The notes under the pieces are model-generated. The model ran no database searches and was not told the origin of the DNA. It saw nothing but the letters and a program-made list of their open reading frames with translations. Made by a program: the position numbers and the translations under genes. 64,000 nucleotides of DNA from a virus. The DNA is taken from positions 56,227 to 120,226 of the IMG/VR virus record IMGVR_UViG_3300043570_002257; one strand, 5' to 3'. Of this stretch, positions 40,301 to 63,161 are shown one piece after another. Each line of letters starts with the position of its first letter. The first letter of the stretch is position 1.

Positions 40301-42735
40301 ATAAATCCAGGAAACATTGTTGTTCTGCTTTCTAACTTATCAACAACACTTGTAATTAACATTTCAGCAAAAGTTTCTTGAGATTGTTCAATTGCTTTTG
40401 CAAGTTTTTTAATCACAGGTAACGCAGTTTCATTTTGACTTAATGTCTCTACTGCGTCATAGAATGTTTCTAAGTCTTTTGGATTACTTAAATCTAAATT
40501 CTTTAATGCAGGATATGCTTCCTTAACTTCTTTTGTAAGTTGACCATTACCTTTAAATGAATCTGCTAACGTATGAATTTTCTTTTCATCAATTGGAAAA
40601 TTAAATTGTTGCTTGTTTTGAGAATCATTAATAAATTTATAGTCATTTGATGCTTCATTACCTGTTGCTCTTATTTCAACTTGCAATGTTCCTTTGTTTA
40701 CATCTTTATTTGATAGTGCAAGATTAACATAAAAAGGTGCTTGTTTTTGATTTTGCCCTTGGTATGTTTTATTGTTATTTTTTACTTTAAATGTGTAATT
40801 GTTTTTACCATATTCATTTGTAGTAAGCAATGCTCTATTATTAAGAAGAGTATTAGATAGGTCAATTACAAATTTGGCAAATTCTACTTTACTTTCCATT
40901 TGAGAAGTAAGTGGATTGATTGTCATGTAATTAATTTTACCTGCATCTTTAAATGTAAGTATAATGTTGTTTTGATTACCATGTTCTGGTTTTACAACAC
41001 TTCCTAACACTTTATCTTCAAAGACACCTATTACTTGTTCTGCGTAAGATTGTTGAGTATGTTGTTTACCCTCAGCATCAAGTATTCTTTGGTTACTATT
41101 AAGTACTGATCTTAATACATATGTATCACCAACTTTGTTATAAATAAAAGGAATGTCAATTGTTTCTGTTTTAGTAACCTCAGTTCCATTAATAACTGTT
41201 ACAACTTGTAACGTTTTAACTAATGCTGGATTTGTTACAATAGCATCTTTAAGTCTTCTGCTTGTTCTAATGTTTGATCTTTTACCTGATGCGTCATATG
41301 AGTCAAAAAACTCACTTGTAACATCAACAGATGTAGCACCAGCTTCATACTGATTAGTTAATTGTTCTGACAGTTTTGTTTTAAAAGCATTGTACAAATT
41401 GCTTGATTCTGCAATCTTTGCAATATCACTATCACTTAATGATTCATTTCCCTGTTTTGTATTTTTAACAGCTAATGCTTTTATAAGATCTTGATGTTCT
41501 GGTTTAGAAAAATCAACTCTTTCAGTGCTGTTATCGCTATTTACAAATACAAAGTTATCACTACTATATAAGTAGAATTTTTCACCAGTACCAATTATTT
41601 CTCCTACAAGAACAAATTGTTGTTCACTAGACTTAGGTCTAGATACTGTCATTACTTTCTTATTAGGTGAAGATTTTAATGCTGCTGTTTGTGTTGCATT
41701 TTCAAATGTTTCATGTTGTCTTTTTTCTAATCCAGCATATTTTACATTTTCACCAGCCACTTCTTGAATACGTTGTACTCTTCTATCAGCAACATTACTT
41801 AATTTTACAGCATGGATTTTTATACCAGCTTGTGTATTCTTCATGTTTGATAACTTCTTTTCAAGTTCAAACTGATCAGCTGAATCAACAGCTTTTATAG
41901 AAAAACTTGAAAGCAATGTGTGTTGTTGAAATACTTGTTCACCTGCATTACTCTTTGAGTTATCTGCAACACGTGCATCTTTTGCAGAAAGTATTTCTGT
42001 TAATGGAATGATTGTTAATGTTCCATCATCATTTATACGTTTAAATTGTTCATCTTCTCTTAAAGCTTCTACCATTTGACCATTAGTCAATGTTACCAAA
42101 ACATTGTTTAAGTCAGCAAGAGCTGCAATTTCAGACAATGAAACAAATGAAGATGTCATTCTTAAAGAATCTAAAGAATGAAGCACCTGTTTAATAAGAA
42201 AATCTTTGTGAACTTGATCAGTAGTATGATCGTTTATTGTATCTGTTATTACTTTTTGAAAATCATCAATCAAACTTTCTCTTTCATCATTTGTAGGAAA
42301 AGAAGTTATACTAAAGTAATTGTTTATTGCAGTCAAAATTCCTTCTTGAGAAATCAAATCTAGACGAGTTATGTTCTTTTTAGTTGAAAGAGCATCAATA
42401 GCTTTGTTGATTGATTCTACCTTTAACTTAGAAGGTTTCTTTAACCCAAACATTACACTCACTTCTGAGACATAATTAGAAACATCATCCATAAATGACA
42501 CAGCACCCATAACATTTTCAGCGTTACCAGCATTGTAAAATTTACTATCAATTCCTGACAATCCCTTATAGATGTATGCCATGTTATGTACAGACAACAT
42601 CTTTTGTTCAGGTGTAAGTGAACTGTTCAATATAAACTTTGCAGCATTGTCAAAGTTATTATATACTGAAGGATCTAACTTTATTAAATTAAGTACAACT
42701 GAGTTGTACTTGTCAGTTTGTATTTGACACGCCAT
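31387..42735 (-). CDS. Virion-packaged single-polypeptide RNA polymerase (crAss/phi14:2 gp66-like) fused to a zincin domain, 3782 aa
   Basis: Catalytic GSDFDVD at 34750-34770 preceded by RIPTEDKRSM; HEAFH at 39745-39759 with downstream EEILAD. Confidence 0.85.
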   Translation of the reverse strand: MACQIQTDKYNSVVLNLIKLDPSVYNNFDNAAKFILNSSLTPEQKMLSVHNMAYIYKGLSGIDSKFYNAGNAENVMGAVSFMDDVSNYVSEVSVMFGLKKPSKLKVESINKAIDALSTKKNITRLDLISQEGILTAINNYFSITSFPTNDERESLIDDFQKVITDTINDHTTDQVHKDFLIKQVLHSLDSLRMTSSFVSLSEIAALADLNNVLVTLTNGQMVEALREDEQFKRINDDGTLTIIPLTEILSAKDARVADNSKSNAGEQVFQQHTLLSSFSIKAVDSADQFELEKKLSNMKNTQAGIKIHAVKLSNVADRRVQRIQEVAGENVKYAGLEKRQHETFENATQTAALKSSPNKKVMTVSRPKSSEQQFVLVGEIIGTGEKFYLYSSDNFVFVNSDNSTERVDFSKPEHQDLIKALAVKNTKQGNESLSDSDIAKIAESSNLYNAFKTKLSEQLTNQYEAGATSVDVTSEFFDSYDASGKRSNIRTSRRLKDAIVTNPALVKTLQVVTVINGTEVTKTETIDIPFIYNKVGDTYVLRSVLNSNQRILDAEGKQHTQQSYAEQVIGVFEDKVLGSVVKPEHGNQNNIILTFKDAGKINYMTINPLTSQMESKVEFAKFVIDLSNTLLNNRALLTTNEYGKNNYTFKVKNNNKTYQGQNQKQAPFYVNLALSNKDVNKGTLQVEIRATGNEASNDYKFINDSQNKQQFNFPIDEKKIHTLADSFKGNGQLTKEVKEAYPALKNLDLSNPKDLETFYDAVETLSQNETALPVIKKLAKAIEQSQETFAEMLITSVVDKLESRTTMFPGFMDNLKRDFTTNGVFRPEWIVADTTSDGLLIPRIKSSLTKNSDKYYKNTFNMKIVEADYKRFTIVPKAIAPAIVQEQVLAPITVAEKIHEKEDVKVTQIESSDLPDIEVFSLTEDANVTVETDEERLSSVEWLRQNLPQFGIDNVALEELISLMQFNGTVLGAFKDKVIYLNDALKGKGVVYHEAFHGVFRHLLNAEERNNLIDAVTGVKKNASQFTEAALKEFARQRNYSFTLDVLKRLKAEEILADGFQNYMLNNTKPKGIIGQLMALLKKLLEMFSKNSSYIDNVYGKIKTGQYKNEVISSGMFEGQFAYKLIDGIRQVSTTSTGMVGESTSTLSRADQDQLVNMLAGYMLEDGQKESFTTKFDRIAKYVLDYEYNLDVLLALPDNAKMIASDPGLKDRILSTMGPLYTNYRFMLGARVNGEKLFDINTTGNPAYDGRVSSKNMIIVPGEEPKDNSLGKVSYEMLRDLVKEKVDSINSILDSNEKSADNDVMQKEMSGANENVISDDDAELDSETSESVDYDSSFNEINAESLPRMIRKYLTIVRYDQVHPQLGIKVPRMIPGEQIFSSLLQTSADIEPSNIIEHIKITGEGQIEDGFYVMGNDILAIYNKLSRETGMESDGVPTKNKQLYNMVVDVLHKTAVDYVMIKPKTVVEEIDPQSNETNLSTTGFTIIDQVFKQDVDNKKKDFLTSIIKTYKENKNNKEYLSQVKELVKLSKKMTSPFILTEVSTQNTQLERLTNELYEAFNNVGLKFPKSLIRMSIMAIDQTDNKVDLNVTGKAKSHYDAHSRFVSEKKYLERDFFFSVNDIFDKIVQGISTNDFAVELDNNNSKDKSINRFNTIIKKASEYIVKYDLSNILPTVRNAEGKPIYRYVSNTPVTLLFQSIRSKGLLATLEDDPFYKDFLKDFFFDNAALTDLLNNKDTPRARETKLLLDNLNVALFGGVSQTVGTKIKDGKSFKNIDKKSLYITQYLAFIKRTTHSSFKKEADSEGNVSDVVTNIQTYQRSFSQLEASQTNYLVTGLYKPFANAKGKVLNSDKRLKIVDTFEDVIKQEYKRIAKEWARSEQNKKDFDSGKQAPILNNYNGVLDNEDKSKVNTELKDLRAYKFNKLADFFTENPEIESNVDKNGLADFAKQGVTYNELDPAIKEALLNSLNNYAQTQLDKHLKNLVDLKVLTKKTIVRHYSSGKLEIDARTGEPKAPITYYDSAFIPTKIVVNNVPETLLSNAYQPTEETYSASKDKIQNANLEGLATDFFFNNWMNALYFNEIIDGDIAMNIKDSTDYFKRNKKLLAAGSTMKEGYHRVAYLNTIKGFISDNHPEYGPYYSKQAIINDTTIKSSEIKEQLLSEFGSKKTMRDIFDGQSITTLMHQIDMHDSMGRLSSDILYSLIAKHYRTLSETEIRMMEAGKVVNNPKKTITASRNSYHKQSENLIDRLDVSIIVPKSNQSLTQAQDTLHGLYMNLYSLRAERQELVKAKEINQIESLDTVIKKTVEDIHEYFRPLPHRKVLHDLLNSMEYHQIDQLMDTTASKNATRLPLDYFSAAEKINETDGYLNLALSSMDIDNKYKFLQVETSGVKDKAKFSVQSKMLIAADVINLNELIKAKGIKMSASEEKALNKITETLVEYQSSLKKIGQSNLATLKTILRKDGDFQVGKIFELISASLEEQGANTATLKLFDLDASGKPVHSANLPGIRNMLEYYFFSQYSKHVTDEKGSGTKSIHISSWGMNVLADENNEVVSTENYKNNPEGYGLLKERPLGVSIEIDKKTGVKTYFIEAIMPKPLFKSKEHEAFYMKNLLKMFGVRIPTEDKRSMVAIKVVDFMDSSNLNGIILPHLVHLLAGSDFDVDALYSQTFAHYFDLSGNPKLYGEYEGGQNTNLNKFAEFVQYMSKDQDMRPLIKKEIKKLLNETSYDVSENVLDVLYHSGFDESDFNGAMNFSELKESYESNKSDIKELMDIRDEAREEFVDAIKRNEINPSDRSALDDRRALGKEVGEYNEELVEKRGQKNEYGRQVSRANRFIDGGLKATAILNVFSKMGLPASAQAFEANPNYALSVRPIFQNLNLQSKLDIMSNEVVYKYLYVNERSSIERFEQIVDNFGLNLDEYSTMYNMYTPDAVIASKVDTSMFKDGIGIAANTNKFVALASQYGLGLKSENVIWSFKNADLEQVYLNKFGTINADNERVIAVVGNILGMFADGAKKPIPAVLQMNEVNTGITLAMIGVGLSPEFAIAFNFIPEIRKAVQEVQAGKYAITESLSTSYTYLGKEIGNQIKDIATSNKDALSNLIKAGLIDPSSNPYKIILNKEKLVVDFKAGKLNTKSILENTLRADEIGFEVSAMIDITDKATDLEETTNRIQFTDAEQKIILLQLYKDQANQTYSIRKAGSMIDLFKKLNPSFTNFDRLFENIKTLRGEESIFTPESVEKIFDENQVWPELFEALEDLNEQASKLFLERTQFFAPIKKAFDSVFVDKANIAKVITSYVALKQYQKNMPGSRKTGTSMDALIEQDDKNLVDTFTPEYWFTNTLPEQLEEFQKKYSNNKFLQLLRPDISENKAFLTSGGYVNERSIKMINKSKISGNLSDEISDDASFLLRNENMFTKKLFYHELAKTGLQYKAGSFLQYLDPGMMIPLSNYIDSFISKLEETKGDKNKLIDVIKDLIGKEATDKDVYEFFDQLFLQMAYAATKEVGNSNIKIATGFSSSLMSNIMKSFNFDAEQSETSRRNILNNVLNRFSGQELKNAKTFRLLSEENQKPVEEIIFNMDVPKDIKEATKETMDEIGKKVSITFDKFTNKYNFPLIISVGFKKYLLNGVDSEIENNSFGKSVINSIVGKGEYVNQGYTAKYTLIPDQLTTGSLSSIGFTKEAAKTYMDYVSGKKKLEYIAPEIKKSEETVAMLPESTVKQTVSKSQLEIDMENLELTDSVVNALYNESSKRMSIEEFKTAAQGVIVNLRAVMSNEQILEKIKCL

Positions 42736-50342: not shown

Positions 50343-53300
50343 TTATTGACCATCATCCCAAGGTGTTGGATTGTATGCAGCAGGCATTGTCATACCACTC
50401 ATATATGCTTGCTGAAAATTATTCCTCATTGAATTTGATTGCCTAGAAGGTTGTAATACCATGTTAGATTGTTTATCAGCATGTAATCTTGCACTCTTAT
50501 CACCCATTATTGGAAGAGCTTGATCATATGCTTGTTTCCAAGCACTTAACGCTGCTTGTGAATTTCCAGCCATATTGTATCCTGCGTTAGTACCACTTCT
50601 TGCACTACTTCCATATGGATTTTGATAAACATCAGGAGCCATTGCAGTTCCTTCATCTCCAAATATTTGTCTTCCTTCACCAGAAAATTCTACATCACCC
50701 ATAATAGGATCAATATATACTTGTGGAAATAAAACATTTTCCATTTGTTTTTTTCTAAACCAGTTAGATGTACCATTGTTAAATGCTGCAATCTCTCTCC
50801 ATTTCTTTTGTTGTAAAGAGTTATCATATTGTTGATTCAATGTTGCCATATCCTCAACATACTTTTGACGTGCATTTTCATTACCAAGTATTTCTTGATT
50901 CTGAACTTGAGCATTTGTATTGTATGCTTGATTAACAATTCCAATGTTTGCAGATTCTGTTGTATCTAATACGTTTGCAGCATTAGCAAAACCTTCACCA
51001 GATGCACCTAAAGTTGTAGCTAATCCTACATTACCATCAGCAGTATTTTGTACTTGACTTTGGTATCTTGCCATTTGCTCTTGATTAGCAGCAAGCTTTC
51101 TTGTAGGATCTAATAAATCATAACCTGGTGTAACTAAGTCAATTTTACCTTGTGTAGGTTCATAACGATTAACTTGATCTGTTGCAGTTCCAACATAGTT
51201 TACAATATCTTGTAACCACCATGGTCCATCTTTCTTAGGTTGTTTTTCAGAAGGTGTTTCTGGAACATTTGTAGTTGGTGTTTCTGGTGTATCTTTTACT
51301 GGCTCAGTAGGTTTTTCTGTATTATCAAAAAATCTAGGTACAGAGTATGTAACTTGACCAAATTTAGAATCTCTAAAGTAAGGGTTAGTTTCTTTGTTAG
51401 AACCAAGTGGTGCAAAGTATGGTACTCCAAATTGTTTCATTGATTTCTCATTGATTGTATCTTGGAACCAACCAGCTGCTTTATCACCTGTTTCTCTACC
51501 TGATTTTAAATCTTTTTTAAGTTGTTCAAATCCACCTGTATATTCTTTATTAATCCAGTCACCATGTCTATCTTGAAAGTCAGCCCATTCTTCTGGAGAC
51601 AAATCACCACTAGTTCTAGCAGCAGCATTTCCTGAAGAAAGATAAATACCAGTACCTTTTACATTTGGTTGATTAGCAAATGTACCAAAGTTTGTATTTG
51701 TGTATTTAACATTCTGAGCTTTAGATATAATCTGATTAATGTTTTGAGAACCATATTGTTCATTCTGAACATCTGTTCTTGTGCCTTGTGCTACAATTGC
51801 ACCATTAGCATCTTTTACATACTTTTGGTTTCCTTTATAGTATGCTTTTAAAACAGTACCATTTTCTAATGTAATGTTTCCAGCAAAAACTTCTTGATTA
51901 GGATCAACACGTTTAGTACTAGCAGCCTGTGCATCTTGTTGTGTTGCAACAGTAGTATTTAATGTACCATTATTAACTTGAGCTCCTACTTGATATGAAT
52001 CATATACTGAACCACCTGAAGCAAAATAATTTAATGCGTCTTGAGCTGTTTTAGGCTTACCAGTAGGCTTTGGTTGTTGAGTTGGCACATTCTGTCTTGG
52101 AGCATTTTGAGTAGCTTGTTGAGTCTCAACAGGAGTTTGTTTAACAATTGTCTGTTGAGGTGCTGCTACTGGCGCTGGATTACCAAATGTACCAACATTT
52201 GTAGAATTTGGAGTTTGTTGTGTTTTTCCTGTATAATCAAATGTATTTGTTGCAACTGCATTGCTTATAACAAGTGGATCTAATACAAAGTTTCCTCCTA
52301 CTGGTTTACCAGTATTATCAATTTTTTGAACTTTAACACTTGGAGCATTATATGCACCACCACCACCTGAAGGAATTCCTGTTGTAGGACTTACACCTGA
52401 AGAAACATTGTAACCTCTAAATGCTGCATTTGCATCTACAACTTTATACTGTTGACCTTTAGCATAAAAAGTATCACCAGGTTTAAATGATTGACCTGCT
52501 ATTTTTGAAATTGTATTTTTAGAATAATAATCTGGAGAATTTTGTGGAGTTGTTCCAACATAATATCTTTTATATTTATCACCAGCTATTCCTGTTTCAG
52601 CATATTTACCTTCTGCTGATTTATTTAAAATTTCACCAAGTTTTTCTGAGTTAACATCATAAGTTCTACCAGAACCATCATCAGCTTTAAATGAAACTTT
52701 ATCACCTGTTCCCCAACCCCAGTTATCTTCATGTTTAACATATCTAAAAGGAACACCATTTAAATAGATAACAGTATTAGGTGTATATTTTATAGGACCA
52801 CCATCTGGATATTTTCTTTTCATAGAACCACCATACATCATTCCTTCTTCTTGTCCTTCCATGACTTCTTCTTGAACACTTTCACCTTGTTCCATTCCTG
52901 GAACTTGTGCACCTTGTAATCCTGACATAACAGATTCTGCAATTGCAGGAATTCCATCAGGAAATCCTTTCATAGATTCTTGTACTAATGCAAGCATACC
53001 CAATTTTTGAGTATTCTTTTTTAGCATCTCAGCAGAAGAACGTTTTTGAATAGCATCAGTGTCTTCACTTTTTAAGTCTTGAACAAACTGATTGATTTGA
53101 TATTTCTTTGCAATTTCTGCAGGAGTATAACCACCTTTCTTTTCTTTTAAACCAAAGATAGATTCAAGGATTTCTTTATCCTTAATCTTTAACTTCTTTG
53201 TATCAGAAAATATAAATGAACCTTCAGGAATATTTACAGGCATACCACCTTTAGAGTGGCGTTTACCTACAAAAGTAAATTGTTCTAAGAAACCGTCTTT

Positions 53301-53492
53301 GTTGATATCACCAACTACTGTTTCACCACCTTCTACTTCAATGTTAGCTTCCTCTTCAGAAGTTGCACTCATAGTATTTTTAACATTACTTGTGCCTTTA
53401 CCGCTATCAGTAAAACTAACATTTCTGCCAACTAGACTATAGTCTTGCTGATCTCCAGGTTTTGGTGCTTTTTTAATTCTAATCTTTTGCAT
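50343..53492 (-). CDS. Modular virion cargo protein (1049 aa) with GG-motif junctions
   Basis: N-terminal ANIEVEGGET/HSKGG/IFSD domain; MMYGG, YPDGG and FASGG junctions; Q/N-rich C-terminus. Confidence 0.7.
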   Translation of the reverse strand: MQKIRIKKAPKPGDQQDYSLVGRNVSFTDSGKGTSNVKNTMSATSEEEANIEVEGGETVVGDINKDGFLEQFTFVGKRHSKGGMPVNIPEGSFIFSDTKKLKIKDKEILESIFGLKEKKGGYTPAEIAKKYQINQFVQDLKSEDTDAIQKRSSAEMLKKNTQKLGMLALVQESMKGFPDGIPAIAESVMSGLQGAQVPGMEQGESVQEEVMEGQEEGMMYGGSMKRKYPDGGPIKYTPNTVIYLNGVPFRYVKHEDNWGWGTGDKVSFKADDGSGRTYDVNSEKLGEILNKSAEGKYAETGIAGDKYKRYYVGTTPQNSPDYYSKNTISKIAGQSFKPGDTFYAKGQQYKVVDANAAFRGYNVSSGVSPTTGIPSGGGGAYNAPSVKVQKIDNTGKPVGGNFVLDPLVISNAVATNTFDYTGKTQQTPNSTNVGTFGNPAPVAAPQQTIVKQTPVETQQATQNAPRQNVPTQQPKPTGKPKTAQDALNYFASGGSVYDSYQVGAQVNNGTLNTTVATQQDAQAASTKRVDPNQEVFAGNITLENGTVLKAYYKGNQKYVKDANGAIVAQGTRTDVQNEQYGSQNINQIISKAQNVKYTNTNFGTFANQPNVKGTGIYLSSGNAAARTSGDLSPEEWADFQDRHGDWINKEYTGGFEQLKKDLKSGRETGDKAAGWFQDTINEKSMKQFGVPYFAPLGSNKETNPYFRDSKFGQVTYSVPRFFDNTEKPTEPVKDTPETPTTNVPETPSEKQPKKDGPWWLQDIVNYVGTATDQVNRYEPTQGKIDLVTPGYDLLDPTRKLAANQEQMARYQSQVQNTADGNVGLATTLGASGEGFANAANVLDTTESANIGIVNQAYNTNAQVQNQEILGNENARQKYVEDMATLNQQYDNSLQQKKWREIAAFNNGTSNWFRKKQMENVLFPQVYIDPIMGDVEFSGEGRQIFGDEGTAMAPDVYQNPYGSSARSGTNAGYNMAGNSQAALSAWKQAYDQALPIMGDKSARLHADKQSNMVLQPSRQSNSMRNNFQQAYMSGMTMPAAYNPTPWDDGQ

Positions 53493-53598: not shown

Positions 53599-56500
53599 TT
53601 AGTCAAGATATTCTATCTCTCCACCCATTGCAAGAATGCGTTTTATCTCATCTTCATCAGCATAAAACTCACCACCTTCATTGTATTGTCTTGTTGCTGG
53701 AATAAAAGGAATTAATCCTCCATATCTAGCTGATGACATTTTAGTACCAAAGTCTTGTATTGGAGTATTTGCAACAAGTGCAAAGTTTGATGCTGGACCA
53801 GCGTTTAATGTGTAGTTACCAAATGGATTGATTGCGTTCTGAGGATTGTATCTGTTCATTGTATTGCCAGTTTCTCTTAAACGTTGCTCATATTCTTTTT
53901 GATAATCAGCAGCACCAAGTACTTCATTTGCCATACCTAATCCTGCAAGAGCATTGTTTGCAACCATCATACCAACTCTATCACCTTTAACAGTTTGAGT
54001 AGATTGTTTCGCAATAGCAGATACATCACCAGGTTGTGCAGCACCACCAGGAGTTTGAGCTACTTCAGTACCTCCAACACTTGTTGCAACAGCAGGTTGA
54101 AATGATGAAAGGTATTGTTGATAATCATTCATATCTCTACCTTCTTCACCCATAAGACCTCTGTTATTTTCAGCCATCCATTCATCAAATGTTAAAGGTG
54201 TTTGACCTCCAACTTGATATTCTTTCATTGAACCACCATATCTTGCTATGTTATCAATAGACTTTCCAAGAGGAACATTACTATCAAAATAACCAGGACC
54301 TATTGGACCTGAAGGAAGCATTTCATTCTTTCTTCTCATCTCATCTATAGGTGCTTCTTGGTACATGCTAGGTTGTGAATATTTTTTCATGAAGCTATTT
54401 GGTTCTTCTTTTCTTTTATTTGTAACATCTTGCATTGTTCCAGATTCTTTTGTACCAGGATTTACAATATATTCTGTTGTTTTAGGATCAGCAAATAATT
54501 TTTCATAACCTAATATTGCACCAGATAAACCTGCAGTAGCTCCAGCAATACCTTTAATCTTACCAAGTAATCCTTTGTTAGGTAAAGCCCATACCATTGA
54601 TCTAGGATCTCCTAATACGTTTGCCTTGGCAAGTCCTCTGTTCCATGCATTGTTTTCCAATGCACCTATTGTATTTGATTCAGTCTTAGTTGTTCTTTGA
54701 TCTCCAACTCTGTAGTTTTCATAATCATACATTGAATTTCTATTAGTGTTAGATGCATCTGGAAAAATAATATCTCCTGGTAACATACCTTTAGCATTCA
54801 ATGGTTCCCCACCTTCTGCCCATGTGCCAAATCTTTTATGCCAATATAATGGTGAGAATGGATCTTTTGCTTTTGCAGAATCTCTTCCACCCATTCTATC
54901 CCAGAATCTATCTTGGCGTTTCTCAGAACCATGTTGACTAAAGTCTTTCATGCCTTTCCATCCACCATGTACAACTTTGTACTTATCATCTTTCTTTGCA
55001 AGTACCATCCATTTCTTGCCAGGTCTTGTAGATTGTTTTTTAACACCTACTTTTGTGAAACCCATGTTCTTATAACGATCAGGCACTGTGCCACCAGAAG
55101 CCATCTCATACATTTGTCCTCCAAGTTCCTTAGCAAAGTTCTTAGCAAAGTTAGCTTTTTTTACCATAGCTGGAGAATATTCTTCCTTATTTGATAAAAT
55201 ATGTGTTGCAGCTCCTTGTACACTCATTCCCATTCTTGTTGCTTGAGCTTTAAATGTACCTTTTTTCTTAGGATTAATTTTAATACCTCCATATTTCATT
55301 TCAGCATCATCATCTAGAATACTCATCATATCATCAAAGTCATCTTCAACTTCTCCATCAACAGTTTCTAAATCATTATCTTCAATGTCATCTGATTCTA
55401 AATCAGCATCTTCCTCTTCTATATCAGATTCTTCAACATCATTTTTTGCAGACTCAATAAAAGAAGATGCTTCTTCTTGTGAGATACCTCCTGCAATCAT
55501 CATGTCCATGATCTCTTCTTCACTTGTTCCATTTTCAAGCATCATTGAGATTTCACCCAATGCATCATTTATATCAGGACCTGCCTGTTGCTGAGGTTGC
55601 ATATTTTGTTGTTGCATTTCTCCACCTTCTTGTTTAGCTTTAATACGTTTCATATTATCTATTTGTAATTGCTTATTCATTAATGCATTATTAATAAGCT
55701 TAAGGCGTTGTTCATCTGTAAGTCCTGGTATAGAACCTATCTGTGCACCAATCTTATTATTATAAAAATCCATTTCTCTACCTTCAGGATTATTGTGATA
55801 CATTTCATACAAAGCACCTAATGCTCTTGATCCATATTCTCTTATTTTTTGTTCTGAACCAGGTAAAATTTCATTCATAAATGATGGTACAGGAAGATTA
55901 GAGGCAACACTTGCTGCAGAACTTACATGTCTTACAGCGTCTAATGGTCCTTCATTATCTTCACCAAATCCAAATCCTTTTGCTTCAGCCATATCAGCTG
56001 CTTTATTTACAAAAGGTGCATACAATAATTTGTCACCAAACTGTCTAACATTTTTATTAATTCTTCTTGCGTACTCTGTCATTAAATCTGCTTCACCTGT
56101 TGAACCTCCTGTTTGATAATTTTGAGCCATACTTTCATCATAAGGATTACTAATGTTTTCTCTTTTTATATTATCAACCTTTCTACTATATATACCAGAA
56201 ACTCCTTTTTTAATCATTGAGTGTGCTTCAACATTATCTATAATAGACTCTGTGCCATCAGGATTTCTCATAACATACACTTTATTATCAGGAGTGTATT
56301 GATTACTATCAACTGACATAGGTTTTAAAGAAGCATTATCATTTGCATCAATATTTGAAATACCTCTTGATGGAATTGTATCCATGTTTGATCTTTCAAG
56401 ATAATAAGGTTGTTCAGGTTTTTTAAAATTATAAACCCATTCTGATGAACCACCTGCATTAGGAGAATATGTACCTACTTGTCTAGTATAATCTATCATA

Positions 56501-57174
56501 GGTGATGTCCTAGTGCCAAGACGTTCATTTATATAACTAACATAGTCACCTCTTAACTTTCTATACTTATCTTTATTATCCTTACCTTCAACTAACGCAA
56601 TGTTATATTTTACATCTTTTTCATAATTATCATCACCATAAACTTCTTTCTCTTTTTCTAATCCACTTGGCAAACTATTATGAAAATTCATAAGTTTATT
56701 TTTCAAGTTAGTACCTGTATTAAAAGCACTTAAACTATCACTATAATTTTTAAGTCTTGGATCATTACGGTCAGTTACAGGAATAGAAACTCTTCCTCCT
56801 TTTTGTGCTTTAGCATTAATCTTACGTTCTTGCTCTAACATTTCTTTTGTAGGTTTTTTACCAGAACCTTTATTATCTCTAATGTTATCCCACAATCCTC
56901 TCTTAGAATAAGAACCATCTGCACGTTTAATCATCTCACCACCTTTTTCCATTGGTGTTTCAACAACATAGTCACCACCAAATAGATATTCTCCACCTGG
57001 CATCATCATTTGTGAGTTACCTAAATTATCAACTCCTCTCACAGGAAAGTCTACACCTTTCATTGTAATCCTATTTGAAGGAATTACATTAACAGGATTA
57101 TTAACATCAGGGCTATTGTTTTTATAACCCTGTGTGCTAATAAATTTCATCAATATTTTGTTAGCATCTTTCAT
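53599..57174 (-). CDS. Modular polyprotein-like cargo protein (1191 aa) with about 12 x-x-x-G-G junction motifs
   Basis: MEKGG, AQKGG, YQTGG, KQEGG, MKYGG, KELGG, MASGG, WAEGG, ARYGG (twice), YQVGG and YNEGG separate compositionally distinct segments. Confidence 0.75.
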   Translation of the reverse strand: MKDANKILMKFISTQGYKNNSPDVNNPVNVIPSNRITMKGVDFPVRGVDNLGNSQMMMPGGEYLFGGDYVVETPMEKGGEMIKRADGSYSKRGLWDNIRDNKGSGKKPTKEMLEQERKINAKAQKGGRVSIPVTDRNDPRLKNYSDSLSAFNTGTNLKNKLMNFHNSLPSGLEKEKEVYGDDNYEKDVKYNIALVEGKDNKDKYRKLRGDYVSYINERLGTRTSPMIDYTRQVGTYSPNAGGSSEWVYNFKKPEQPYYLERSNMDTIPSRGISNIDANDNASLKPMSVDSNQYTPDNKVYVMRNPDGTESIIDNVEAHSMIKKGVSGIYSRKVDNIKRENISNPYDESMAQNYQTGGSTGEADLMTEYARRINKNVRQFGDKLLYAPFVNKAADMAEAKGFGFGEDNEGPLDAVRHVSSAASVASNLPVPSFMNEILPGSEQKIREYGSRALGALYEMYHNNPEGREMDFYNNKIGAQIGSIPGLTDEQRLKLINNALMNKQLQIDNMKRIKAKQEGGEMQQQNMQPQQQAGPDINDALGEISMMLENGTSEEEIMDMMIAGGISQEEASSFIESAKNDVEESDIEEEDADLESDDIEDNDLETVDGEVEDDFDDMMSILDDDAEMKYGGIKINPKKKGTFKAQATRMGMSVQGAATHILSNKEEYSPAMVKKANFAKNFAKELGGQMYEMASGGTVPDRYKNMGFTKVGVKKQSTRPGKKWMVLAKKDDKYKVVHGGWKGMKDFSQHGSEKRQDRFWDRMGGRDSAKAKDPFSPLYWHKRFGTWAEGGEPLNAKGMLPGDIIFPDASNTNRNSMYDYENYRVGDQRTTKTESNTIGALENNAWNRGLAKANVLGDPRSMVWALPNKGLLGKIKGIAGATAGLSGAILGYEKLFADPKTTEYIVNPGTKESGTMQDVTNKRKEEPNSFMKKYSQPSMYQEAPIDEMRRKNEMLPSGPIGPGYFDSNVPLGKSIDNIARYGGSMKEYQVGGQTPLTFDEWMAENNRGLMGEEGRDMNDYQQYLSSFQPAVATSVGGTEVAQTPGGAAQPGDVSAIAKQSTQTVKGDRVGMMVANNALAGLGMANEVLGAADYQKEYEQRLRETGNTMNRYNPQNAINPFGNYTLNAGPASNFALVANTPIQDFGTKMSSARYGGLIPFIPATRQYNEGGEFYADEDEIKRILAMGGEIEYLD

Positions 57175-60100
57175 TATCTTGAACTATTAAGATGTTTTGA
57201 GTTTGTTAGTTTTAATATCATTTTTTTGTCACCACTTACATTCTTGCGTAAGATTACTTTGTTTCCATAATGTCTAAACTTTTTATGTTCAGTTGGTGTT
57301 TTAAAGTAATTTACATAATCTGGATTTATTGTTCTTTCATAACCAGAACATTTTGTAATCCACATTGGTATATCATTTCCTGTAAACTCACCTCTATCCT
57401 TTGTAACATCCCAAAACTGATTAAATCTAAACTTGTTTTCTTCTTTAGAAAAAAGTATGTTAATACCATTTGCTGTTGCTTGTGGGTAATTAACCAACTC
57501 TAATGGATTGTTCTTGCCTTTAAGTTTAAGTTTTAATAAACCAGACATTTGTTCTGAGTTATGTATAATTGCTCTGTCAAAGTTTTCATCAAGAATATGA
57601 TTAAAATCTTTACCATCATTAAAGAACTTATATACGTCTAGTGTATACTCTATGCTTCTAAGTGTTGTTACACTGTTAGGAGTTGTCACAGGATACTCTA
57701 CTTCCCATGGATAATCTACACCATAGTAATTAGCAAAACTATCCCAGCGATCATTGTGTTTCCAAAAACCATTACCTTTAATTGTAAAGAAGTGTTCATG
57801 TGAAGGCATCAATAAACTAGGTTTCCAATCATGGAAACTTATCCATAACTTTTGTTTTGGATCATAACTTATTGTCCAACCACATGGTGTAAAACACTTA
57901 GGGTCATCATATTCACATGGACATTTAATTAATTCAGGTTGAACTACAATAATCTCTAATTCACAAATGTTTGTGAGATCATCTTTAGTACTTATTAATT
58001 GATAAGTAGTATTTATTACAGGTGATACAGTTATTGAATCTGTTGCGTTTACAGTAATATTATTTGGCATAAGCACAACAGAATCTGGTCCACCATCAAC
58101 AGACCATGTTAATGTTATTGATTCACCTAAATTTATTGTGTATGGTGAAGATTCAAATGTACAACTCAGATCTACTACTGGGCATGGTACATTTAAAATT
58201 GTATCAGATATGATAGTATTTACAATACCAGAAAGAGATGTACTTTTTGTACCTCCTGTAGTATCTGCATAAATATTATGTACTATATTTATTGCAAATG
58301 GAATAATTGGTAGGTCATTACTAACACCTACACCTGTAGCAATTGGAAATATTTTTATTCCAGCTGCTGCAGCATTGTCTGCAATTACTTGAACTCTTGC
58401 AAGATCTACACCAGGATCAAACACATCATCTGTGCCAGAAGGTCTAGCATCTGTAACCATTATGATTACTTTAATTGCTTCTGGTCTAAAAGTTCCTGCA
58501 TCACCATCAATTGCCATTTGTATACCAACATCTGTTGGTTCTGGTTCCATCTCACCATTTCCTATAGTAACAGCTTGCAATGCAGCATTAAATGATGTAA
58601 TGTTATTTAAAGACATTGTATGTCTTACAACATTAAGTACAATGTTTGATTGATCTACTGTTATTAAACCAAACCTATAATTATTGTTAGATTTTATTGC
58701 AGCATCAGCAGCAATATTTACAATACTTTGTTTAATATTTGTCAATACACCACCCATGCTTCCTGTAATATCAATTACAAAAACTAAATCTAATGGCGCT
58801 ATACAAGGTGTAACTGGTTCCTCTGCCATCAACATAATTGGAGCTGGCGTAGAAAATTCAGGTATAGTGCCTTGTAATGTAGCAGGTCCAGTTTCACCAC
58901 AACTATAAAAAGGAGAAACTAAAATTTGGTAATGTGCTTCGTTATTTAATGTTTCTGTAAAAGGAAAAGAACCTCTTACATAATTTATTACAGAAGGAAA
59001 AGTATAGGTATTTGTAGGATAGTTTACTGCAGTACCAAGCATCAAAATAGGATAAGTCCACGCTAAAGAACCATCAAGATCTAAAACTCCTTTTCTTATT
59101 TGAATACCATATTGTTGTGGATTTTCTTGATTACTTGCTAATGTAGGATGTTCCCAGTTTATTGTCAATGTTCCATCAGGATTAAGTCCTGTGGTTGATA
59201 TTGTAGTAACTGGTACAGGTACACACTCAGTAGGATCTCCTCCACCACCTGTGGTTCCACATGGATAGTAAGGTACACCTGAAGGATCATCAAAATGTAA
59301 ATCTGATCTTAAAGGAATATAATCTTTCTTTGTAAAGTATACTAACTCATACTGAGGATCATAAATTGCTTGTACTCCAATACCTGCTACAGGATTATCA
59401 TACAATGGATAATCTGGATATTGACGTAATAATTCAGAAGGTAAGTTTTCAGCAAACCAGAACTTTAAACCATTTCTAGATATCTCATTAAGACTACCTG
59501 CGTAATGCATAATCTTACCTGATTTCTGAGAAGCATAAAATAAACCATGTGGTGTATTTACTGCAGATCTTGAAGAAATACAAGCACCATATTCTAAAGC
59601 ATCATCTGCATTAGTAATACTTTGCATATTTTGTTGGAATAATCCACCATCACCAATGGTAATTTTTACACCACCTTTAGTTTGTAACTGATCAACCCCA
59701 ACAAATTGTGTAGGTTCATCATTCTCAAATAAGATAATAGCACCAGTACCATTTAAAGATTTTATTGTACTGATTTTTCCTCCAAAATCTTTATAGTTAA
59801 GAGGTAAGAAGTTTCTCCAGTTGTCTCGTTTAAGACCTGACTGCTGTTGGAGAGAGTACACTCCACGTTTAGGGTAGTACTCAAAACATGTGCTATAGAT
59901 AGCTGGGTCATAGTCCCTAGGTAAAATTTGTCCCCAGGTTGCAAAGTTGTTGAATAATTTTGATGTGCTGAGTGATAAGTCATATTTGTTATAAATTGGT
60001 TTAGTTATTAAATCTGATCTAAACATTGTAGCCTCATCATTAAATGAGTTACCATATACATCATAGAACTTTTGAAAATCTTCTTCACCATAATCTCTAA

Positions 60101-63100
60101 ATGCCATATTAAGTTCAGACTCAGTATAGAAATCTCTAATACCATTATGGAATAAATATGCAAAACAGTTTCGTAATGTCAAATAAGGTTCAGTACCAGG
60201 TCTGTCTAATCTATGAAAATCACTAGGTGTTGTAAAATCTAACTGTGGTATAATAGGAATGTTCAATATTTTTTTAAATGATAAATCTACATCAAAATCA
60301 GTTGCATCAAATTTATCATAGTCAATCCAATACCTTGGTACAGGTCCATTTACATAATTTCTATAATTATACTCAGTAGTATTTGGCATATCAAACATCC
60401 ATGTATTAAAAAACATGTATGGATTTTTTTCAGTATATCTATTAATATAGATGTCACCACCAAATATTGTTGATGTTGAATAAGTAGTTGTTAACTGAGG
60501 TTCTGTTGAGTATATACAAGAATCTGTTGGCAGTTGAACTATTGACGTTAATTGACCGTATTGATTTTCAAAATCTACTTTTAATGCACCATAGTAAGCT
60601 ACAGTATTTGTTATTACAGAATCTTTAGTAGGATTTGAACGATCAATTCCTCCATCTCTAACTCTATGCTTTGTGTTATCTATTATAGATACAACATTTG
60701 GTAAATCAGATGTTAACTTAACAGCAACATATTTATTTCTATTAAGATTATTAATTCTATATGTTGCATCTAAATCATGAATTCCTGAACCAATATATTT
60801 AGTTCCTGAATCTGCAACTTTTCTTCTAAAAGCATTAGGTAATCCAGAAGGTACATCAGAATTTGATACATTAGAGTATGAGTCATAAAATCCATGACTA
60901 TTATACTGAAGCATGTATTGTCTTTCCTTACCAAGTTTTCTTAAAATATCTAAAGTTTGATCTATGCCTTGCCCTAAATAGTATACAGCTGTTGTTGCCA
61001 TTACTAGAAGTCCTGCAACTGCAGCTGTAGAACCTATAATATTTGAATATGCTCCTGCTATTAAATCAGGTACTATGGTTGCTGGTCCTGTATCTCTTGA
61101 AGAAGTAGTACCTTTTTCATAACCAGCTCCAAATGGTGCAGCCCAAAAAGTGTCGTGTCCTGTTGTGGTAGTTTTACCAACAGCAGAAACTACTGCAATA
61201 CCCAATCCTACAATACCTGCTAATATAAAAGCAGCATCTGATAAGATTACATGTTTTGGATGTTTATGAGGATATTCATATTTACCTGTTACTTTACCTC
61301 TTTCTTCTGTATAAATTTTAATATAGTTAGAACCAACATAAGGTTTAACAAAGTTTGTTTCTACACCATGAAAAGAAAAATAATTTTTTTTATGAGTATC
61401 AAGTTTAGATCCTGATTCAACTCCAGATTGAGTTCCTCTACCTTCATCAAGTATAGAATAGTCATTACTTAAAAAGTTATCAGGTCTAATGTCATTATAA
61501 GGATAGTTTTGAAACAATCCTTTTCTTTGAGTATTTCCTTGAATGTCAAACTCAAACATGTTGTTAAATAATCCTTTAGCAACAATAGTTCTATTTCCTT
61601 CTCTTGATCCTCTTAATATTTCATATCCTACAACATCTTTTATTGGAGTAAGTGTTTCATCTACTGGATGTTGAACATTAGAAAATTCTACACCTAAATT
61701 ATAAATATACTCTCCACCTTGACTGTGAATATGAATAGTTTCATTAGAAGGCATCTTGTGATGTCTAATTGGTTTACCACATAATGTTCCCCAAACATCT
61801 GGTTTATCATCAGGATATCTTTCTGTTGATTCCCAATACGCCATATCACCTTTAGCAATGATAGCACCACCATCTTTGGTAGTACCAGATGCTACATATT
61901 TTGTTGCAGTATCATACACCTGCCATACTTCAGTTTCTGAAGGATTAATAACGTCAGATGTTGATACAGGATTTGTATCTATTCCTGTAGATATTCTACC
62001 AGGAATATGAAAAGATGCACTTCTAGCACCAGTCTTATATACCCATCTAATAAAAAATGCATATACTTCATCACGCATATAACCTGTAACATTACCTCCA
62101 TTGTGATAATAGTCTGAAGGAAATTGTGCAGCAACCCACTGCACTTTTATATCATTTGCTTGTTTTTGATAATTAAAGTATGGTTGTGTAGTTACTCCTG
62201 TTCTGATAAGATAGTTATTAACAGAGTGCATTTTCTCACTCTTTTCATATACTATTGACTTCAAAGGTATTAATGCAAGTTCAACAGTTTCTAAACTTTG
62301 ATTATATAAATCAAGATGTACTGATGTTTGTCTAGTTGAATAGTAACCTATTTTTTTTGCTATTGTTTGTTGATTAATAACTGCAATAACAACAAGTTCA
62401 TACTCATCATAATCCTTATCTAAGTTGCTTACAATAATATCTAAAGAACCACCTATTCCAGTGTGGTCCCATAATGCTTGTGGTTGACTTGGTATTGAAT
62501 AGTCTGTAAGTCTTATTCCATTTTCTGAATAAGCTACTACAGCCATATAACTACCATTATTCAATTGACCAGATCCTTGTGCTTTTTTTACATCCACACA
62601 TGGTTGAGTTACAAGAGGATGTAATCTTAATGCATCACAATCTAAATCAGTTGTATATTCTGGAATAAAACAATCAGGATCTTGAGACAAGTTATTACCT
62701 GTTGTCTTGTAAGGAATTCTATCTAAGTTTAAAGTTCTATCAGGATTTAAATTATCTTGAAAGAATGTAGAAAAAGTGCAGTCATAATTTTCTTTTGTAA
62801 CTGCAGTAATCAAATTAGTTTTTTTAAAACCAAGACATGGATCATTTATAACTACTGTATATGAACAATCTCTTTCATCAAAAATACCAATCTCAGAAGA
62901 AACATTATTTGTAGAAAATATAACCCATGAAGTTTTAGATTTATGAGATATTCCAATTACATCATAAGTTGCGTTTACACAAAACTTATTAGAGGGTTCG
63001 TTACCAATAGAACCAGTCTCACCATAGTGAGCATTGTTTATGGCATTAACAGCATTAGTCCAAAGACCTTCTGATATGTAAATATCAGTATAGTCTTTAA

Positions 63101-63161
63101 CCATACCTTTATTAAAGGCATTAGTTTTGGCAGCACTTGTATTTGTAAAATTCTCGCTCAT
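57174..63161 (-). CDS. Tail stabilisation/muzzle protein (crAss-like, P22 gp10-related) with inserted FN3-vWA-Ig module
   Basis: N-terminal FNKGMVKD, MRDEVYAF, IRHHKMP, GGDIYI, YFTKKDY, WTISY and WISFHDW motifs; MIDAS-like DITGSM at about 58755-58775. Confidence 0.75.
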   Translation of the reverse strand: MSENFTNTSAAKTNAFNKGMVKDYTDIYISEGLWTNAVNAINNAHYGETGSIGNEPSNKFCVNATYDVIGISHKSKTSWVIFSTNNVSSEIGIFDERDCSYTVVINDPCLGFKKTNLITAVTKENYDCTFSTFFQDNLNPDRTLNLDRIPYKTTGNNLSQDPDCFIPEYTTDLDCDALRLHPLVTQPCVDVKKAQGSGQLNNGSYMAVVAYSENGIRLTDYSIPSQPQALWDHTGIGGSLDIIVSNLDKDYDEYELVVIAVINQQTIAKKIGYYSTRQTSVHLDLYNQSLETVELALIPLKSIVYEKSEKMHSVNNYLIRTGVTTQPYFNYQKQANDIKVQWVAAQFPSDYYHNGGNVTGYMRDEVYAFFIRWVYKTGARSASFHIPGRISTGIDTNPVSTSDVINPSETEVWQVYDTATKYVASGTTKDGGAIIAKGDMAYWESTERYPDDKPDVWGTLCGKPIRHHKMPSNETIHIHSQGGEYIYNLGVEFSNVQHPVDETLTPIKDVVGYEILRGSREGNRTIVAKGLFNNMFEFDIQGNTQRKGLFQNYPYNDIRPDNFLSNDYSILDEGRGTQSGVESGSKLDTHKKNYFSFHGVETNFVKPYVGSNYIKIYTEERGKVTGKYEYPHKHPKHVILSDAAFILAGIVGLGIAVVSAVGKTTTTGHDTFWAAPFGAGYEKGTTSSRDTGPATIVPDLIAGAYSNIIGSTAAVAGLLVMATTAVYYLGQGIDQTLDILRKLGKERQYMLQYNSHGFYDSYSNVSNSDVPSGLPNAFRRKVADSGTKYIGSGIHDLDATYRINNLNRNKYVAVKLTSDLPNVVSIIDNTKHRVRDGGIDRSNPTKDSVITNTVAYYGALKVDFENQYGQLTSIVQLPTDSCIYSTEPQLTTTYSTSTIFGGDIYINRYTEKNPYMFFNTWMFDMPNTTEYNYRNYVNGPVPRYWIDYDKFDATDFDVDLSFKKILNIPIIPQLDFTTPSDFHRLDRPGTEPYLTLRNCFAYLFHNGIRDFYTESELNMAFRDYGEEDFQKFYDVYGNSFNDEATMFRSDLITKPIYNKYDLSLSTSKLFNNFATWGQILPRDYDPAIYSTCFEYYPKRGVYSLQQQSGLKRDNWRNFLPLNYKDFGGKISTIKSLNGTGAIILFENDEPTQFVGVDQLQTKGGVKITIGDGGLFQQNMQSITNADDALEYGACISSRSAVNTPHGLFYASQKSGKIMHYAGSLNEISRNGLKFWFAENLPSELLRQYPDYPLYDNPVAGIGVQAIYDPQYELVYFTKKDYIPLRSDLHFDDPSGVPYYPCGTTGGGGDPTECVPVPVTTISTTGLNPDGTLTINWEHPTLASNQENPQQYGIQIRKGVLDLDGSLAWTYPILMLGTAVNYPTNTYTFPSVINYVRGSFPFTETLNNEAHYQILVSPFYSCGETGPATLQGTIPEFSTPAPIMLMAEEPVTPCIAPLDLVFVIDITGSMGGVLTNIKQSIVNIAADAAIKSNNNYRFGLITVDQSNIVLNVVRHTMSLNNITSFNAALQAVTIGNGEMEPEPTDVGIQMAIDGDAGTFRPEAIKVIIMVTDARPSGTDDVFDPGVDLARVQVIADNAAAAGIKIFPIATGVGVSNDLPIIPFAINIVHNIYADTTGGTKSTSLSGIVNTIISDTILNVPCPVVDLSCTFESSPYTINLGESITLTWSVDGGPDSVVLMPNNITVNATDSITVSPVINTTYQLISTKDDLTNICELEIIVVQPELIKCPCEYDDPKCFTPCGWTISYDPKQKLWISFHDWKPSLLMPSHEHFFTIKGNGFWKHNDRWDSFANYYGVDYPWEVEYPVTTPNSVTTLRSIEYTLDVYKFFNDGKDFNHILDENFDRAIIHNSEQMSGLLKLKLKGKNNPLELVNYPQATANGINILFSKEENKFRFNQFWDVTKDRGEFTGNDIPMWITKCSGYERTINPDYVNYFKTPTEHKKFRHYGNKVILRKNVSGDKKMILKLTNSKHLNSSR

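Follow-up and report, generated by a model that had tools for sequence, protein, structure and literature searches.

Gly-Gly motifs at the cassette borders of a putative cargo protein in a divergent crAss-like phage

Crassviruses carry megadaltons of cargo protein. Here we consider an open reading frame (ORF) of 1191 amino acids, P0001, which lies at 53599..57174 on the minus strand of a 64,000-nucleotide stretch of viral DNA (positions 56,227 to 120,226 of IMG/VR record IMGVR_UViG_3300043570_002257). We refer to this whole stretch as the window, and all coordinates are those of the window unless another sequence is named. The reading frame is open over all 1191 residues, and the protein is punctuated by pairs of glycines (GG). 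What purpose might these pairs serve? The initial annotation of the locus read the protein as a polyprotein that is packaged as one chain and then cut after GG into small pieces. We favor a different answer, to which we give about an even chance: the protein is an uncut, cassette-built cargo or ejection protein, in which the GG motifs act as hinge or boundary elements.

Glycine pairs and cassette borders

Could the glycine pairs simply be the chance product of a glycine-rich composition? Glycine makes up 10% of the residues, from which 11.8 pairs are expected, whereas the protein contains 21; in 10,000 shuffles of the sequence, 21 pairs are reached at a rate of 0.0044. The strict motif [M/Y/W/F]-x-x-G-G occurs 10 times, as compared with 1.57 +/- 1.24 times in shuffled sequences, a count that none of 5000 shuffles attains. 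Per 1000 residues, this ORF has 8.4 such motifs versus 0.71 elsewhere (26 motifs in 36,427 residues of the other 105 ORFs of the 120-kb genome), which is a roughly 12-fold difference, and the motif is almost limited to this gene and its 1049-residue neighbor. The initial annotation had set enrichment over background glycine content beforehand as a test of its proposal, and the motif is enriched against both shuffled sequences and the rest of the genome. The same holds across the family of related proteins described below, in which 2425 pairs are observed and 1235 expected. These controls refute chance enrichment, and we regard it as next to impossible.

The twelve GG codon positions that were initially listed are all exact to the base. 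They correspond to residues 78, 126, 356, 517, 629, 685, 694, 788, 980, 989, 1152 and 1167, that is, to window positions 56938, 56794, 56104, 55621, 55285, 55117, 55090, 54808, 54232, 54205, 53716 and 53671, respectively. The three doubled sites that had been claimed are real (residues 685/694, 980/989 and 1152/1167), and so is the claimed switch in composition at GG: the net charge of the successive pieces is 0, +6, 0, -1, -37, +8, +13, +2 and -5. A glycine pair is not always a junction, however. GG 737 and 762 lie within the DUF5754 domain; GG 60 and 66 lie within a confidently folded beta domain; and GG 241, 1034 and 1043 are poorly conserved.

The junction pairs divide the chain into the following units, all encoded on the minus strand. 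The N unit (residues 1-79; 56938..57174), which is usually the first unit in relatives as well, is beta-rich, is predicted with a local distance difference test score (pLDDT) of up to 91, and ends in MEKGG. It is followed by the basic B unit (residues 80-127; 56794..56937), with 48 residues, a net charge of +6, a core that reads RADGSYSKRGLWDNIR...KKPT, and no matching Pfam family. Next come a rare, variable cassette (residues 128-357; 56104..56793), shared by few relatives, modeled with low confidence and ending in YQTGG, and a helical cassette (residues 358-518; 55621..56103) that ends in KQEGG and matches DUF6973 weakly, at 23.7 bits and under the cut-off of 27. The Gln- and acid-rich Q unit (residues 519-630; 55285..55620) ends in MKYGG and carries a net charge of -37 across 112 residues; speculatively, it might mimic DNA or serve the basic units as a counter-ion. 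The K unit (residues 631-686; 55117..55284) is basic and helical, and ends in KELGG. A spacer of 9 residues between doubled sites, QMYEMASGG (residues 687-695; 55090..55116), separates it from the DUF5754 unit (residues 696-789; 54808..55089), which has a net charge of +13 and ends in GTW-AE-GG. The remainder is the T region (residues 790-1191; 53599..54807), which consists of Gly/Ala-rich hydrophobic helices, contains further pairs at 980, 989, 1034, 1043, 1152, 1167 and 1184, and has a conserved tail, ILAMGGEIEYLD. In the protein as a whole, Pfam recognizes DUF5754 only, besides the sub-threshold DUF6973 match.

If the pairs delimit cassettes, then similarity among related proteins should begin and end at them. 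A word-indexed search returned 436 relatives, sampled by similarity to the conserved units, and the counts given here describe that sample. Similarity to the 1191-residue protein is patchy, and it breaks at query residues 79/80, 126/127, 515-517, 629, 685-695 and 789/790, which are GG sites. Among 14,887 internal BLAST breakpoints in 120 relatives, 47% fall within 5 residues of a GG, as compared with 18% of random positions, and the median distance from breakpoint to GG is 5.5 residues rather than the 19.5 of random positions. The sequence logo of 1563 GG contexts shows M, Y, K, W or F three residues before the first glycine, and E, Q, K, A or R two residues before it. In an alignment of 52 sequences, the invariant columns are mostly the junction glycine pairs, which are kept in between 43 of 44 and 52 of 52 sequences, while their flanks vary.

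The cassettes are recombined extensively. When 240 proteins are cut at GG and the pieces are clustered, 326 piece families result, and 120 proteins display 101 different architectures. Most of this change consists of the insertion or loss of cassettes, and reordering occurs in a minority: for example, B follows DUF5754 in 8 of 63 proteins, and K follows DUF5754 in 8 of 81. The ends of the chain are more constant, with the T unit last in all 90 proteins that also carry DUF5754, and the N unit ahead of DUF5754 in 65 of 66. The cassettes of relatives include the Pfam families SLT, M15_3, YkuD, SET, DUF5872, DUF3597, DUF732 and DUF6321.

The natural ends of the units tell the same story. Of 177 distinct contexts of the B unit, 172 have a GG within 7 residues upstream, and 149 of the 150 internal copies are followed by a GG. 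Query residues 60-135, which hold the B unit, retrieve 2948 short metagenomic proteins, with identities that reach about 90%; among these are complete ORFs of 49-124 residues, some of them stand-alone, on contigs of up to 120 kb. A tblastn search of 50,697 deposited phages with the B unit and with the whole protein gave no match, and the searches turned up no cultured member of this clade. The DUF5754 unit has 344 representatives among 1.84 billion clusters, at any position and in proteins of 108-2662 residues. In 129 new representatives, a GG lies within 10 residues upstream in 123, and within 14 residues downstream in all 119 internal copies. Of the 10 copies at a C-terminus, nine have GTW as their very last residues, two positions ahead of the x-x-G-G of the fused forms, and the two N-terminal copies start with M-[SA]-IP where fused copies read GG-x-IP. 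Internal N units are preceded by KKKYGG (5 cases, 4 of them with a nearly identical flank). At 40 of 76 related loci, two or more adjacent genes share the units between them, and the second genes of such split loci begin at a unit border, e.g. MANKPNNP... as compared with GG-NVPTNP... in the fused form. The initial proposal of modules separated by GG is thus confirmed by breakpoints, conservation and natural ends alike, and related phages do have its modules as ORFs of their own, and also combined or ordered differently.

Over the best 150 of its 344 cluster representatives, the DUF5754 unit retains 65-92% identity, even though the proteins that carry it are otherwise less than 50% alike; this conservation suggests a fixed partner.

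How old is this arrangement? A hidden Markov model (HMM) of the N unit matches a gene of Leptolyngbya phage Lbo-JY46 that follows the muzzle-position gene of that phage (E 5e-17). In this cultured cyanophage (L081:13566-17077), the N unit and the C-terminal tail motif belong to two different genes that have few GG motifs, which argues that the end units are older than the expansion of GG cassettes. The C-terminal stretch of the N-unit gene also resembles a lytic transglycosylase, by eye only. We regard the architecture of modules punctuated by GG as real, and as ancient.

The predicted structure places the junctions between folded parts. The full-length AlphaFold2 (AF2) model is poor (mean pLDDT 49), with confident islands at residues 20-75, 420-500, 535-580, 640-685, 815-930 and 1057-1100. 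Junction GGs lie between these islands, in stretches with pLDDT below 50, and at 685 and 1184 a GG directly follows a predicted helix. A Foldseek search of the full-length model against the PDB gave no match at E <= 0.001, and a wide structural comparison returned generic helical matches alone, with Z below 8. The DUF5754 unit, when modeled alone, reaches a pLDDT of 73; its model has no relative among solved folds (best Z 2.2), and in BFVD it resembles uncharacterized proteins of giant viruses and phages, including Vibrio phage ICP1. Its conserved His and Asp residues raised the idea of a Gly-Gly metallopeptidase (LAS/M23-like), which is not supported: H736 is not invariant, and the model matches no solved fold.

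Gene order and the link to ΦcrAss001 gp45

The phage is a divergent crAss-like phage of 120 kb. The window forms the right-hand part of one viral contig, 120,226 bp long and rated 95% complete. This contig also carries genes for a major capsid protein of crassvirus type (PF23898), for tail ring protein 2 (PF25702), for a portal and for a large terminase. Identity of the terminase to those of known Crassvirales is only about 25%, and the best deposited matches of the terminase and of the gene upstream of P0001 are Leptolyngbya phage Lbo-JY46 and Cellulophaga phages.

This upstream gene, of 1995 residues (57174..63161, minus strand), occupies the muzzle position, contains a VWA domain, and is a virion structural protein according to PHROG; its stop overlaps the start of the 1191-residue ORF. 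We call it a muzzle by position alone, and its BLAST comparison with the ΦcrAss001-type muzzle of cr111_1 is not significant (best E 0.056). Downstream of P0001 lies its conserved neighbor P0241, of 1049 residues (50343..53492, minus strand), in which the junction motif recurs, also in doubled form (MMYGG-SMKRKYP-DGG). The order of muzzle-position gene, 1191-residue gene and 1049-residue gene is kept in all 45 related IMG/VR loci in which the three genes occur together, and the layout is equivalent in cr111_1 and ΦcrAss001. In the latter, gp45 (PDB 7QOG and other entries; Pfam crAss_CARG1) likewise lies directly after a muzzle-type gene, ahead of further cargo and RNA-polymerase genes. The initial placement of the gene after the muzzle gene, where crAss-like phages encode head cargo, is therefore borne out as a position, the muzzle label being itself positional. 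Judging by gene position, the 1191-residue protein is probably carried in the virion.

The product of the equivalent gene, gp45, is a virion cargo protein of ΦcrAss001 (PMC10172136). An HMM built from 78 K units, searched against a set of 113 proteins, matches gp45 at residues 376-421 (E 3.4e-8) and C1 of cr111_1 at residues 210-261 (E 4.8e-6), and the next match, which is unrelated, has an E of 0.45. An hhalign comparison of the K unit with gp45 gives 40% identity over 55 columns (E 3.7e-4, probability 36.5%), and BLAST to cr111_1 C1 gives E 0.006. The homology to gp45 is limited to this one cassette. The K-like segment of gp45 is bounded by GG 373/374 and GG 427/428, and gp45 as a whole is enriched for glycine pairs (21 versus 13.3 expected, p 0.015).

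Ordered density of gp45 is described for residues 214-245 in the tail barrel and for residues 425-552 on the portal (PMC10172136); we take these ranges from the text of that paper, not from coordinates. According to these ranges, the first segment begins 4 residues after GG 209/210, and the second begins 2 residues before GG 427/428 and runs through it. The chance that a segment starts within -2..+5 of a GG is 0.18 for each segment, and 0.03 for both. If the range 425-552 is correct, then the gp45 chain continues without a break through the junction that corresponds by homology to KELGG (685).

The two proteins also differ. No overall similarity is detected between the 1191-residue protein and gp45, and crAss_CARG1 (PF25725), which binds the portal, has no match in the 1191-residue protein even at E <= 10. 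This domain is present in P0168, a relative that shares the B unit (E 1e-9). The motifs of the 1191-residue protein are many more and better defined, and its cassettes B, DUF5754 and Q are missing from gp45. A search of PDB chains with the A1 profile gave nothing significant. The closest relative of the protein is crassvirus cargo protein 1.

The closest concept is that of the polyvalent protein (Iyer et al. 2017, PMC5512222), in which, likewise, many domains are combined variably in one virion-associated chain. The cell-wall enzymes SLT, Peptidase_M15_3 and YkuD, together with SET, occur as cassettes in relatives of the 1191-residue protein. In contrast, a built-in peptidase, which is frequent but not obligatory in polyvalent proteins, is not found here; the cassettes here are mostly tiny and of unknown function; and a search of PMC5512222 brought up no junction motif. 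The protein can be regarded as a variant of the known cargo and polyvalent proteins, joined at a recurring GG motif. We found no description of a Gly-Gly junction rule for crassvirus cargo in the literature.

Hinge, cleavage site or contact

How might such a joint work? In the protein, units of 45-230 residues are strung together, with a usual N-terminal unit, exchangeable basic, acidic or unknown cassettes, and a constant C-terminal unit. Each internal unit start is preceded by hydrophobic/aromatic-x-x-Gly-Gly or by Ala/Lys-Tyr/Phe-Gly-Gly. In the reading we favor, the glycine pair would bring the helix or linker before it to an end, and the border would be anchored by the aromatic residue. 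The units may then fold, unfold and refold independently, while the chain is stored along the tail and head and is later threaded through the tail. Since such a joint would be generic, cassettes could be inserted, deleted or moved without disturbing their neighbors. We infer that the chain is uncut from the continuity of gp45, the fixed end units, the lack of a detected protease and the GGs that end helices.

Several points weigh against this reading. A passive hinge does not need near-invariant glycine pairs with an aromatic residue or Met three positions upstream; such conservation is typical of a recognized linear motif. The motif is kept before the first unit of some stand-alone ORFs, and it is doubled with 7-residue spacers. 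Moreover, the splitting of units over at least two genes (40/76 loci) implies that continuity from N to T is not required. The continuity of gp45 concerns one junction in a distant phage and comes from the text of a paper rather than from coordinates, and the presence of the 1191-residue protein in the virion is deduced from position only.

These points lead to the chief alternative, that of GG-directed proteolysis, which we consider unlikely, albeit a serious contender. In this case, the precursor would be packaged and then cut after some or all of the junction GGs, inside the particle or once it has been ejected into the host. An unrecognized phage or host protease would free small pieces in a variable assortment, some basic, some acidic and some enzymatic, among them the two ultra-conserved basic units, B and DUF5754. 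The motif is conserved as linear motifs are and falls in linkers modeled with low confidence, and natural unit termini lie 0-4 residues from the would-be cuts. The stand-alone units, the split genes, the doubled sites with short spacers, and the near restriction of the motif to one gene and its neighbor all speak for cutting as well, as does the precedent of cleaved packaged ejection proteins in SPN3US, φKZ and T4 (PMC10052503). However, no protease domain is found in any ORF of the 95%-complete genome or in the extra genes of relatives, gp45 is modeled as continuous over the homologous junction, and the ΦcrAss001 structure paper (PMC10172136) makes no mention of cleavage, protease or proteolysis. 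Furthermore, invariant GGs also occur inside the folded DUF5754 unit, and the N-first, T-last order suits an intact chain. The initial reading of polyprotein cleavage is accordingly left without support by the failure to find a protease, by the continuity of the gp45 model, as far as the text of that paper goes, and by a C-terminal unit that always comes last.

The protease search was as follows. Pfam scans covered the large virion ORFs, 21 + 73 other ORFs, 76 diverse relatives and 27 extra genes of related loci. About 100 ORFs of the genome contained no protease family, and the 76 relatives and 27 extra genes contained no peptidase except the cell-wall Peptidase_M15_3 cassette; a built-in processing peptidase was found neither in P0001 nor in the 76 relatives. 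Six-frame HMM searches of the genome for C48, C5, C39 and S77 produced no candidate. A gene of 417 residues between the portal and capsid genes gave weak scaffold and Prp leads in an ESM Atlas search, both under 0.85, and nothing significant in a PDB sequence search; it is scaffold-like at best.

Proteolysis of packaged cargo does have known forms with which our motif can be compared. The packaged ejection proteins of SPN3US are cut multiply at a motif, and their φKZ and T4 homologs are noted as cleaved (PMC10052503); processing of polyvalent proteins has been proposed as well (PMC5512222). The initial claim that nothing of this kind is described in tailed phages was therefore too strong. As in the 1191-residue protein, several copies of a short motif occur in the packaged ejection proteins, namely gp245 of SPN3US (AXE motif) and its φKZ and T4 homologs. 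The SPN3US, φKZ and T4 motifs end in Glu, though, and a prohead protease gene is present (PMC10052503), whereas here the motif is Gly-Gly and no S77-type or other protease is found. The sequence G-G-E would suit a small-x-Glu pattern, and the residue after GG is Glu in 22% of the 1563 contexts; most sites lack it.

Cleavage at GG-X processes the core precursors of adenovirus and the polyproteins of African swine fever virus (ASFV), through proteases of clan CE (adenain, pS273R, Ulp1), whose sites have a hydrophobic residue at P4 before G-G. Double-glycine leaders, in turn, are cut by C39 peptidases, and consist of a single N-terminal leader of 15-30 residues. Our motif resembles both in that a hydrophobic residue precedes Gly-Gly. 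That residue, however, stands at P5 or P3 rather than at P4, where we find E, Q, K, A or R; no C5, C48 or C39 domain is found in the genome; and the motif is internal and repeated, unlike an N-terminal leader. Polymorphic toxins offer a further parallel, since a short conserved motif, such as VENN or DPXGL, marks the joining point of their exchangeable cassettes. They have one junction, before the C-terminal toxin domain, whereas the single chain considered here has a dozen, and immunity genes are absent.

A linear motif may also be recognized without being cut. On this account, the aromatic-x-x-GG or A-Y/F-GG peptides of an uncut chain would make low-affinity contacts with the portal wing, the tail rings, the muzzle or a host factor, and these contacts would set the stowage and release of the cargo. 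In gp45, a motif of this kind stands at the beginning of each of the two ordered, partner-bound segments, and AFGG itself (residues 425-428) is ordered at the portal, as far as the text of PMC10172136 describes it; conservation at the level of a linear motif fits as well. Yet small stand-alone proteins have the motif ahead of their units as well, and its copies, at least 12 per chain, outnumber the known binding sites. We judge such docking improbable. A further alternative is a purely genetic origin, in which GG-coding microhomology would join cassettes and the motif would have no function in the protein. Cassette borders do coincide with GG, as this origin predicts. The glycine codons of the pairs, however, are GGT 24 times, GGA 16 times, and GGC and GGG once each, with all four GGT/GGA pair combinations present. 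Because the codons vary freely, it is the protein, rather than a DNA word, that is under selection; this same variation rules out a Shine-Dalgarno remnant (GGAGG) or a DNA recombination word. The upstream aromatic preference and the near-invariance of the pairs in diverged homologs likewise indicate selection at the protein level, and we consider a recombination by-product very improbable indeed.

Neighboring genes and implications

Other genes of this genome merit brief description. In the 1049-residue neighbor, the stretch VEGGE...VGKRHSKGGM is loosely like the crAss_CARG1 region of P0168 and gp45. As a CARG1-like start, it was rejected: its BLAST comparison is not significant (E 0.6). The same protein matches a 484-residue protein of Lbo-JY46 (E 0.001), and a PDB sequence search with it gave nothing significant. 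Further along, a 3782-residue ORF with neither a Pfam nor a PHROG match (31387-42735, minus strand) and a 1969-residue ORF whose sole match is a PD-(D/E)XK nuclease (25476-31385, minus strand) occupy the place where crassviruses encode RNA-polymerase-associated cargo. Two tail-fiber genes of 2183 and 1890 residues (11268-17819 and 17821-23493, minus strand) each have a terminal Peptidase_S74 intramolecular chaperone domain.

Outside the window, the same genome encodes a structural-block protein of 586 residues (L001:3451-5211, minus strand) with five thrombospondin type-1 / spondin repeats (E 2e-56), a domain that is unusual for a phage; it contains 11 GG versus 3.4 expected. Two adjoining ORFs of 163 residues (L002:6741-7232 and L002:7435-7926, plus strand) have identical glycine statistics and no family match for either, and they are probably a tandem duplicate.

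What does a Gly-Gly joint mean for crassvirus cargo? A generic joint that delimits cassettes amounts to a rule for reading cargo proteins that are otherwise unannotated. The joint ties environmental crAss-like phages to the structurally solved gp45 of ΦcrAss001, and a query that holds one of the units it delimits (residues 60-135) retrieves 2948 short metagenomic proteins, yet none of the 50,697 deposited phages matches that unit. The joints also name exact residues to mutate, or to seek in existing mass-spectrometry data. If they are cut, then they would represent a new, Gly-Gly-specific processing of cargo polyproteins in crAss-like phages, analogous to the core processing of adenovirus and ASFV. 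If they are uncut, then they would set the segments in which a long ejection protein passes through the tail.

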